NCBI RefSeq assembly: GCF_057098645.1
Contig: NZ_CM169472.1
Strand: one strand, 5' to 3'
Length of the DNA stretch: 64,000 nt
Part shown: one piece after another, positions 61,801-64,000 of the stretch
Layout: each line of letters opens with the position of its first letter
Position numbering within the stretch: the first letter of the stretch is position 1
Made by a program: the position numbers

Positions 61801-64000
61801 AGTGAAGCGCGCCCGCTATGGAATCCGAATATCGTGCTGTGCATGAGTCTTTCCAAGCTGGGTCTACCTGGCTCCCGCTGCGGCATTATCATCGCCAATG
61901 AAAAAATCATCACCGCCATCACCAATATGAACGGCATTATTAGCCTGGCACCTGGCGGTATTGGTCCGGCGATGATGTGTGAAATGATTAAGCGTAACGA
62001 TCTGCTGCGCCTGTCTGAAACAGTCATCAAACCGTTTTACTACCAGCGTGTTCAGGAAACTATCGCCATCATTCGCCGCTATTTACCGGAAAATCGCTGC
62101 CTGATTCATAAACCGGAAGGAGCCATTTTCCTCTGGCTATGGTTTAAGGATTTGCCCATTACGACCGAGCAGCTCTACCAGCGCCTGAAAGCACGCGGCG
62201 TGCTGATGGTGCCGGGGCACAACTTCTTCCCAGGGCTGGATAAACCGTGGCCGCATACGCATCAATGTATGCGTATGAACTACGTACCAGAGCCGGAGAA
62301 AATTGAGGCGGGTGTGAAGATTCTGGCGGAAGAGATTGAACGCGCCTGGGCTGAAAGCCATTAATACGCTATTCCGGCGTTGAGAAACGCCGGAAAAACG
62401 TTTCAAACAGGCTGCTGCCGTAGCCGATGCCGCTGCACTTTCTCGACATCCATGCACTGCAACGCCTTTGTCGGGCAGGCTTCAACACAGGCCGGTCCCG
62501 TCTCCCGATGCCAGCACAGATCGCACTTAACCGCCCTCGCCTTTTTGCGCGAAGAAACGACCTCCATCGCACCAAACGGGCAAGCCAGCATACAGCTTTT
62601 ACAGCCAATGCAACGTGTTTGTTCAACGAAAATATGCCCATGTTCGCGGCTTATCGCGTCAACAGGGCAGACATTCGCGCACGGTGCATCTTCACACTGA
62701 TGACAGGCTACTGCCGTGGTCCAGCTGTGGTCTTTAATAACACGAATACGGGAAATAAACTCGTCTGGTGACAACGCAGCGCAATCCTGATTTTCCTGAT
62801 GCGACACTGCGCAAGCCACTTCACAGGTACGGCAACCGATACATTTCGTCGCATCCGCAATAATAAACCGGTTCATGATCACCCCTTTGCACTAAAACAG
62901 CAGAGTGCCAGAGAACGCGCCCCTACTGCTTTGATCCAACGAAGGAAATGTTAAAGTTTTGGCACTTGTCCAAAGCGTTATGTGATCGCGCCCAGGTCGT
63001 CCCTGACAGTAAACCCCAGTTCATTAGAAATAGCCTGCGCGGTTTCACGCAGTGGTTTCAGGAGATTTTTCTCCCCCACCTGTTTCAGACGTGATGTCGA
63101 AAGCGAAATCGCCCCGGCACTACGAATTGATATGTTCCTTGCTGTAACGCCGCTTCCACGCTGCTGGCGTTAAACCGGTGTGTTTGCGAAAAATCTGCCG
63201 GAAATAGCCAACGTCATTAAACCCGCACAACGCCGCCACTTCCGTGAGCGATCGCGCTTCGCTAATTAACAGCTTTTCGGCTTCGCGCACCCGCTGGCGA
63301 TGGATTGCTTCTGTTAACGTCAGATGAAACACCCGCCGGTAGACGCGCCCAAGATAATCGGCATTGCAGTACAGCTCGCGAGCCAGAAGCGCCGTAGAAA
63401 GCGGGCGATGATATTGCGTGCGGATCAGTTTCTGCGCTTTCCAGGCAAGGGGGGTGCCTGCGCCATCGGCCTGTTCATCAAGACGCGCGTCACGGGTGAG
63501 CTGCTGCAAAATGAGCAGCACAATAAACTCCAGCGCCGGAGTGCGTTGATGCTTTTCCTGTTCGCTTAAGAACTGGCGAAACAGGGCCACCAGCGCCTGC
63601 GGATCGACAACCTTCGTTTGTTGCGGCACGCTAAGATGAGTAAGCCAGCGAGGGTCGTTGTCCGGCGCTTTAACCTCAAAATGCAGCCAGTAAAATTTGA
63701 GATCGGCGGGAAAATCCTCCACCCCAACATGTTGTCGGTTCGGCCAGAGTAATAAACTCTCTCCCGCATCGACCAGAAATATCCGTTCTTCTTCCTGAAT
63801 CGTTAATCGACCTTTTTCGACAAAGATAATTTCCCATGACTCCAGCCGCCTTGCAGGATGCCTCCCTACGCCACGGGAAATAAATAATCCACCATTTTGC
63901 ACTTTAATCGGTAACGTCATGGATAATTCGAGCATTGATATGTAATTTCCCGCTTATTCATTAATGATTAAACACATTACCTTTTGATTATTAATCAAAA

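Follow-up and report, generated by a model that had tools for sequence, protein, structure and literature searches.

A probable deletion scar inside yiaJ brings an AraC-family regulator gene next to ysaA in Escherichia coli

The DNA considered here is a stretch of 64,000 nucleotides from contig NZ_CM169472.1 of assembly GCF_057098645.1 (hereafter the window). A preliminary description of it started from the K-12 gene order avtA-ysaA-yiaJ-yiaK, which the annotation of strain MG1655 bears out, and reported that the IclR-type gene yiaJ was not at its expected place at the right edge, where an AraC-type regulator gene and an AT-rich segment were seen instead. A strain-specific replacement or insertion that continues beyond the window was proposed. 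The locus raises the questions of what became of yiaJ, whether the AraC-type gene is a newcomer and what the gene might control.

Results

The right end of the window keeps the K-12 order bax, malS, avtA, ysaA. Positions 62300-64000 are 100% identical to the chromosome of E. coli O145 str. RM9872 (1,701 bp compared) and 99.3% identical to O157 genomes. In the RefSeq annotation of RM9872, ysaA is followed by a 141-bp IclR-family pseudogene ("missing N-terminus"), an AraC-family gene, an MFS transporter gene, a GH127 glycoside hydrolase gene, yiaT and yiaU; the last four lie beyond the window edge, and their positions were read from RM9872. The features at the right end are as follows:

62403..62876, minus strand: ysaA, 4Fe-4S ferredoxin-like (HydN-like), as annotated in RefSeq for O145 RM9872, which is identical here
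62877..62977, no strand: ysaA-yiaJ spacer of 101 bp, equal in K-12 and E. coli B
62978..63118, minus strand: 3' remnant of yiaJ/plaR (IclR family), 141 bp, pseudogene, from RefSeq annotation, alignment and translation
63108..63118, no strand: probable deletion junction ATCGCCCCGGC, from three-way alignment and BLAST breakpoints
63120..63935, minus strand: intact AraC/XylS-family regulator gene, 271 aa, from the open reading frame and Pfam domains
63936..64000, no strand: first 65 bp of a predicted 225-bp divergent regulatory region, from cross-genus spacer alignment

The left neighbour, ysaA, is unchanged, and its mechanical open reading frame reaches a GTG at 62882. An Rfam scan of 60000-64000 gave no match.

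Intact yiaJ is indeed absent from the window, but the preliminary description overlooked the 3' remnant that precedes the AraC-type gene. This remnant, which abuts the stop codon of the AraC-type gene, comprises 46 codons and a stop, the N-terminal 236 codons having gone. Its translation reads AGA-ISLSTSRLKQVGEKNLLKPLRETAQAISNELGFTVRDDLGAIT*, in which the first three codons come from the junction and the last 43 residues are identical to the C terminus of K-12 PlaR. The intact IclR-family repressor YiaJ/PlaR has 282 residues, with an N-terminal helix-turn-helix and a C-terminal effector domain; no such protein is encoded here, and a Pfam search of the remnant gave no match.

The origin of the remnant can be read from comparison with E. 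coli B, in which the order is ysaA, yiaJ, yiaK-L-M-N-O, lyxK, sgbH (ulaD), sgbU, sgbE (araD), the AraC-type gene, MFS, GH127 and yiaT. When the window was compared with this locus (L002) by BLAST, the match fell into two blocks, which adjoin at 3024 and 12001 of L002 and overlap by 11 bp. Compared with E. coli B, the window is short of 8,987 bp that begin within yiaJ and end a little beyond sgbE, and the missing segment corresponds approximately to MG1655 3,741,825-3,750,811, coordinates that can be assigned because K-12 and B are collinear there by BLAST, without net insertions or deletions. Within it lie 708 bp of yiaJ/plaR, a gene of 849 bp, and the complete yiaKLMNO-lyxK-sgbHUE operon. Alignment of the region downstream of ysaA against K-12 and E. 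coli B thus yields deletion breakpoints and no inserted sequence.

At the junction, 63108-63118, the two copies of an imperfect 11-bp direct repeat, ATCG[A/C]C[A/C]CGGC, have merged; one of them, ATCGACACGGC, lies in yiaJ and the other, ATCGCCCCGGC, in the right arm of a hairpin between sgbE and the AraC-type gene. In a three-way alignment, the switch point falls within ...GAAATCGACACGGCGT... of yiaJ, ...CTTCATCGCCCCGGCACTAC... of the spacer between sgbE and the AraC-type gene and ...GAAATCGCCCCGGCACTAC... of the window. The region is very probably the scar of an old chromosomal deletion, in which 8,987 bp were lost between the two repeat copies, presumably by slipped-strand or short-homology recombination. 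Loss of the front of yiaJ together with the yiaK-sgbE operon would have brought the AraC-type gene up to ysaA, and yiaJ would thus seem to be missing because a 9-kb deletion removed most of it along with the adjoining sugar operon.

The AraC-type gene is found at a corresponding site in other genomes. In E. coli B it lies between sgbE and yiaT, and in Salmonella and Klebsiella, as in E. coli B, the regulator gene stands beside an sgbE-like aldolase gene and is divergent from MFS_2 and GH127 genes. Pantoea sp. At-9b carries the divergent regulator/MFS_2-GH127 unit intact among unrelated flanking genes, so that the linkage is conserved across four genera (E. coli, Salmonella, Klebsiella and Pantoea). 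K-12 MG1655, with the order avtA-ysaA-plaR(yiaJ)-yiaKLMNO-lyxK-sgbHUE-ysaC'-ysaD'-yiaT, shares with the window lineage the flanks malS, avtA and ysaA and, outside the window, yiaT and yiaU. All that it has between sgbE and yiaT is a pair of pseudogenes: ysaC corresponds to the final 102 bp of the AraC-type gene (33 codons plus stop, one substitution), and ysaD to a 190-bp fragment of the GH127 gene with 89% identity.

These comparisons show an ancestral enterobacterial order of ysaA - yiaJ(plaR) - yiaKLMNO-lyxK-sgbHUE - (AraC-type regulator divergent from GPH-type MFS - GH127) - yiaT, and on this synteny the AraC-type gene has long belonged to the locus. K-12 has kept plaR and yiaK-sgbE and lost ∼4 kb holding the AraC-type, MFS and GH127 genes, whereas the reverse is seen in the window. 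As K-12 and the window lineage each lack a different module, the two arrangements therefore represent reciprocal losses at one ancestral locus. The comparison with K-12 was misleading because K-12 has itself lost the regulator/MFS/GH127 module.

The frequency of each arrangement was counted in 5,426 complete E. coli genomes:

AraC-type gene body present: 2,320 (43%)
3' end of the AraC-type gene present: about 4,760
3' stub only, K-12-like: roughly 2,440, by difference
yiaJ'/AraC junction (AraC-type gene beside ysaA): 426 (7.9%)
Junction exactly as in the window (CCCC): 348
Variant junction (ACAC), ATCGACACGGC: 77

The AraC-type gene is accordingly not the conserved neighbor of ysaA in K-12 and most E. 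coli, and the suspicion that the arrangement is specific to certain strains proved sound. The adjacency of the two genes is ordinary variation between strains. It is also annotated in hundreds of public genomes that include O157:H7 Sakai (ECs_4456-4459). The 348 genomes with the CCCC junction include O157:H7 Sakai and EDL933, O55:H7 DEC5A and O145:H28 RM13514, and in the O157:H7, O55:H7 and O145:H28 strains both the junction sequence and the order ysaA, IclR stub, AraC-type, MFS, GH127 are identical to those of the window. The 77 genomes with the ACAC junction are diverse (O169:H41, O78, animal and water isolates).

Two explanations other than a deletion were weighed. An artefact of assembly or sequencing that joined two distant regions has a negligible probability, since the identical junction is present in 348 independently finished genomes and its variant in 77 more. 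The proposal that yiaJ gave way to a horizontally acquired island with the AraC-type gene on it, the AT-rich stretch being its edge, draws on the lack of an intact AraC-type gene in K-12, on the restriction of that gene to 43% of E. coli genomes and on the unusual AT-richness of the last 61 bases of the window. It is nevertheless highly improbable. A 3' stub of yiaJ was left at the junction; the trio follows sgbE alike in E. coli B, Salmonella and Klebsiella; and traces of it persist in K-12 as the degraded ysaC and ysaD. The GC content of the trio, ∼50-60%, is similar to that of its surroundings, and in the annotations of RM9872 and E. coli B no integrase, insertion sequence or other mobility gene, tRNA gene or border repeat was found flanking it. 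The AT-rich stretch corresponds to a conserved intergenic region predicted to act as a promoter region rather than to an edge of foreign DNA, and what continues past the window, judged from RM9872, is MFS, GH127, yiaT and yiaU. Composition, the absence of mobility genes and the shared site in Salmonella and Klebsiella are thus not those of a horizontally acquired island, and the yiaJ stub, together with conserved synteny and unremarkable GC content, led to rejection of an insertion. Of the preliminary interpretation, the lineage specificity stands; its cause is very probably the 8,987-bp deletion, with nothing inserted or replaced.

If a deletion is accepted, it may have arisen once or several times. 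At least two independent events at the 11-bp repeat, acting as a hot spot, would account for the CCCC junction in O157, O55 and O145 and the ACAC junction in 77 strains. The two junctions (348 versus 77 genomes) differ exactly at the two positions at which the repeat copies differ, and the carriers come from very different backgrounds. This was assessed with simple neighbor-joining trees of a small sample of 19 loci (12 carriers and 7 intact). In the tree built from the 1,041 bp next to the junction, the 12 sampled carriers all group together, separate from the 7 intact strains and with both junction types intermixed; the farther flanks in the same sample are mosaic. Furthermore, an AraC gene at least 99% identical to that of the window occurs in 415 genomes, a number close to that of the 426 carriers. 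Recurrent deletion is on these grounds rather doubtful, and the data suggest a single old deletion haplotype that recombination has carried from one background to another. Conversion of one junction type to the other could occur where recombination with an intact donor stops at the scar.

The preliminary description of the gene after ysaA as encoding a 271-aa AraC/XylS-type regulator with a cupin-like N-terminal domain was confirmed by the open reading frame at 63120-63935 and by Pfam. The protein (ECs_4457 in O157:H7 Sakai; WP_000891833.1) matches the cupin-type AraC_binding profile over residues 26-132 (39.2 bits; cut-off 21.1) and HTH_18 over residues 184-263 (profile positions 1-80, complete; 69.9 bits; cut-off 33.6), with HTH_AraC at 40.9 bits. 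It thus has both the double helix-turn-helix C-terminal domain of the AraC/XylS family and the N-terminal cupin-type domain of the AraC-like subgroup. It differs from the E. coli B protein at three residues, and orthologues with 66-85% identity are present in Citrobacter, Salmonella, Enterobacter, Klebsiella, Kluyvera, Leclercia and Pantoea.

AraC, the araBAD regulator, has the same pairing of cupin AraC_binding and double helix-turn-helix domains and provides the top NCBIfam match (residues 38-268), yet at 61.6 bits this falls below the equivalog cut-off of 208 (NF007860). AraC also differs in genomic context and in length (292 aa versus 271 aa); a possible link of the present regulator to L-arabinose would run through GH127. 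Scores against RhaS, RhaR, MelR, ChbR and the other listed NCBIfam equivalogs were far below each cut-off. Because the scores lie so far under the equivalog cut-offs, ligand specificity cannot be transferred from AraC, MelR or RhaS/R. A search of PDB sequences with the regulator returned matches to AraC-type DNA-binding domains only and no informative relative of the ligand domain.

The AT-rich segment at 63940-64000 noted in the preliminary description is genuine (23% GC, compared with 51.2% over all 64,000 nucleotides; just 0.6% of 61-bp windows reach this AT content). Positions 63936-64000 (65 bp, 23% GC) form the start of a 225-bp spacer, located at 4,325,068-4,325,292 of RM9872 and 32% GC overall, between the divergent start codons of the regulator and MFS genes, and the AT-rich end is predicted to be a divergent promoter region shared by the two. 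Alignment of the spacer from E. coli, Salmonella, Klebsiella and Pantoea revealed several invariant blocks. One, TGATTATTAA at 63985-63994, is the sole block within the window; those outside it are GA-N6-TCACA, AGGTCGGAAT, CTTTTT(A/T)TACT, CCTTGTTG and GCAGAATNAAT. The conserved blocks may also be given as AGGTCGGAATCGTC / CTTTTTTTACT / CCTTGTTG. A perfect 19-nt palindrome, TTTTGATTA-T-TAATCAAAA, occupies 63982-64000.

As a separate observation, the end of the window also holds a 23-nt direct repeat; of the palindrome and the repeat, just the core of the palindrome is conserved.

A simple scan for sigma-70 promoters over the equivalent of 62800-64300, spacer included, gave no match, and the four terminator-like matches in the same interval are at chance level. 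A CRP consensus search found a half-site with two mismatches in the spacer, matches of this kind being no commoner than in shuffled sequence; conservation of GA-N6-TCACA across genera is a weak lead toward a CRP-like site. A weak -35/-10 pair, TTGTTG-16-CAGAAT, may serve the transporter operon, with putative activator sites directly upstream of it and the CRP-like half-site farther up, which would give an araBAD-like layout.

The two genes beyond the spacer encode a transporter of the GPH type (Pfam MFS_2, 246 bits) and a GH127 protein. The latter, outside the window, contains three GH127 Pfam domains (PF07944 at 371.7 bits, PF20736 and PF20737) and aligns with the Geobacillus beta-L-arabinofuranosidase 4QJY at E = 4e-233 and with Bifidobacterium longum HypBA1 (3WKW) at 9e-150. 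The catalytic, middle and C-terminal domains of the family are all present, as are its Cys/Glu motifs: AESCAS (E-x-C) and CACCPPN (C-A-C-C-P-P-N) are retained in the 4QJY alignment, and we take these to be the catalytic/zinc site, as in HypBA1. The E. coli protein shares both the three domains and the motifs with the HypBA1 and Geobacillus enzymes. Its partners are different from those of the Bifidobacterium system, which, according to PMC7263609, comprises an ABC importer and extracellular GH121/GH43 enzymes; in E. coli it is accompanied by one GPH-type symporter and a regulator of the AraC type.

Discussion

The organization of the trio resembles that of a well known system. In the MelR/melAB system of E. 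coli, an AraC-family activator gene is divergent from an operon for a GPH-family symporter and an intracellular glycosidase. Here too, a regulator gene is divergent from a GPH-type symporter/glycosidase pair, and a weak NCBIfam MelR match extends over the helix-turn-helix domain of the regulator. The glycosidase is of family GH127 rather than GH4, however, and the transporter gene comes first; with a score of 38 against an equivalog cut-off of 253, the regulator is not an orthologue of MelR. The retention of the trio in Pantoea with different flanks and the invariant spacer blocks predict that the regulator and the divergent MFS_2-GH127 pair form a functional unit.

On this genomic evidence, there is a good probability that the regulator controls the adjacent transporter-GH127 operon. 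Its cupin domain would bind a sugar imported by the adjacent GPH-type symporter, in an AraC- or MelR-like manner, and its double helix-turn-helix domain would then activate the transporter-GH127 promoter in the 225-bp spacer. The most plausible inducer would be a beta-L-arabinofuranoside or arabino-oligosaccharide of plant hydroxyproline-rich glycoproteins, or the L-arabinose released from it. The GH127 enzyme may cleave beta-L-arabinofuranosyl residues in the cytoplasm and so feed L-arabinose catabolism; that beta-L-arabinofuranosides are the substrate class is evenly balanced. The regulator gene, the promoter region and the two putative target genes are intact in the deletion lineage.

The regulator may instead act elsewhere, on ysaA, the former sgb operon or distant genes. 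In E. coli, Salmonella and Klebsiella, its gene also borders the yiaK-sgbE operon, on the sgbE side. The gene is convergent with sgbE, however, so the two share no promoter, and in Pantoea the neighborhood is without an sgb operon and yet keeps the divergent arrangement and the spacer motifs. Targets of this kind are accordingly improbable, and control of the adjacent operon is preferred. A more specific proposal can be made only tentatively, and stands well short of an even chance: ECs_4457 may be a dedicated sensor/activator for enterobacterial import and hydrolysis of beta-L-arabinofuranosides from plant extensins and hydroxyproline-rich glycoproteins, a module that O157, O55 and O145 would have kept while losing PlaR and the main operon. 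ECs4457-4459 were unmentioned in the library of literature searched, and a paper on L-arabinose in O157 does not treat the locus. In a study of inflammatory bowel disease, an E. coli GH127 protein is listed, without functional work, among variable genes correlated with invasiveness (PMC11879602).

The deletion also has practical implications. According to PMC6958661, the PlaR protein of K-12 is a repressor of the yiaK operon, with about 18 binding targets connected with plant-derived nutrients. We infer that carriers of the deletion are without both PlaR and the genes of the 2,3-diketo-L-gulonate/L-xylulose pathway. K-12 PlaR regulatory maps would not transfer to enterohemorrhagic strains of this lineage because these are without PlaR and that operon. 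The lineage keeps an uncharacterised module, probably for plant beta-L-arabinofuranosides, with a possible role on plant material or in the gut; were ECs_4457 the dedicated sensor/activator proposed above, use of plant-derived sugars would have been rewired in the O157/O55/O145 lineage. More generally, reciprocal gene loss at one locus can give a gene an unexpected neighbor relative to K-12. Beyond correct annotation, the importance of the adjacency itself is small, and the remaining biology is the function of the regulator/transporter/GH127 module.

The deletion may also have altered the 3' end of the regulator transcript. The right breakpoint falls inside an 8-bp GC stem, GCCGGGGC-N6-GCCCCGGC, between the convergent sgbE and regulator genes. 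The intact, GC-rich stem directly follows the 3' end of the regulator gene and has a folding energy of -22 to -24 kcal/mol (z about -3); no fold at the scar is stronger than those of shuffled controls. The deletion would thus have destroyed the hairpin, and the regulator transcript may now run on toward ysaA, which is on the same strand. Read-through into ysaA is speculative, and the stem may never have been a terminator because it is without a U-tract; if read-through is real, hairpin loss could couple the regulator transcript to ysaA.

The junction sequence provides a simple marker of the deletion haplotype. Genomes that share it may still differ nearby: in Sakai and O55:H7 the avtA-ysaA spacer is 151 bp long with REP-like palindromes, compared with 39 bp in the window.

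Junction sequences of the yiaJ-sgbE deletion

The 8,987-bp deletion that extends from inside yiaJ to just past sgbE was observed with two different junction sequences, which map as follows:
window 63108-63118, and ∼7020-8100 of the loci L008, L009 and L011-L015 of further strains: deletion junction, two versions

The version present in the window, ATCGCCCCGGC, was found in 348 genomes (O157/O55/O145), and the other, ATCGACACGGC, forms the junction of the same deletion in 77 diverse genomes. Comparison of the two revealed mismatches at exactly the two positions at which the flanking repeat copies disagree. 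TR01, a strain labelled O157:H7, has the minority junction type.

The AraC-type regulator gene and its neighbors

The sequence upstream of the AraC-type regulator gene includes TTTTGATTA-T-TAATCAAAA, a perfect 19-nt palindrome, as well as a 23-nt direct repeat with copies 27 bp apart:
window 63957-64000, running on to position 16707 of the O145 RM9872 locus (L001): palindrome and direct repeat

Of these elements, only TGATTATTAA is retained as far as Pantoea, and it may represent a -10 element or autoregulatory site.

Remnants of the trio formed by the regulator, MFS transporter and GH127 glycosidase genes are present in K-12:
K-12 locus (L003) 12814-13110: ysaC and ysaD pseudogenes

Here, ysaC is the decayed end of the AraC-type gene and ysaD that of the GH127 gene. 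The ysaD fragment shares only 89% identity with the intact GH127 gene, as against 99% for its surroundings, and is thus far more diverged.

Strain C9 (cow), which carries the deletion, retains the initial 138 bp of the MFS gene, with an IS1 element after them (L014 8067-8972). It lacks the remainder of this gene together with GH127, yiaT and the 5′ portion of yiaU, such that the AraC-type gene is an orphan. Strain H105 has a frameshift in the GH127 gene and also lacks yiaT-yiaW (L020 16343-18312), and in O166:H15 genes encoding a HicAB toxin-antitoxin pair and a type I restriction endonuclease replace yiaT-yiaW (L021 18379-20543). The changes in these last two strains identify the region downstream of the trio as another hot spot of variation.

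Variation elsewhere in the region

The spacer between avtA and ysaA also differs in length among strains:
window 62365-62402: avtA-ysaA spacer, 39 bp

By contrast, in many strains, among them E. coli B, K-12 and Sakai, the spacer is 151 bp and holds REP/BIME-like palindromes (gcctgatgcgctacgcttatcaggcctac...); these are variably present, even between deletion carriers. Beyond the window, a 1,296-bp Fic-family gene lies between aldB and yiaY in O145 RM9872 (L001 25864-27159), an insertion that K-12 and E. coli B lack and that is also found in H105 and M172-1.
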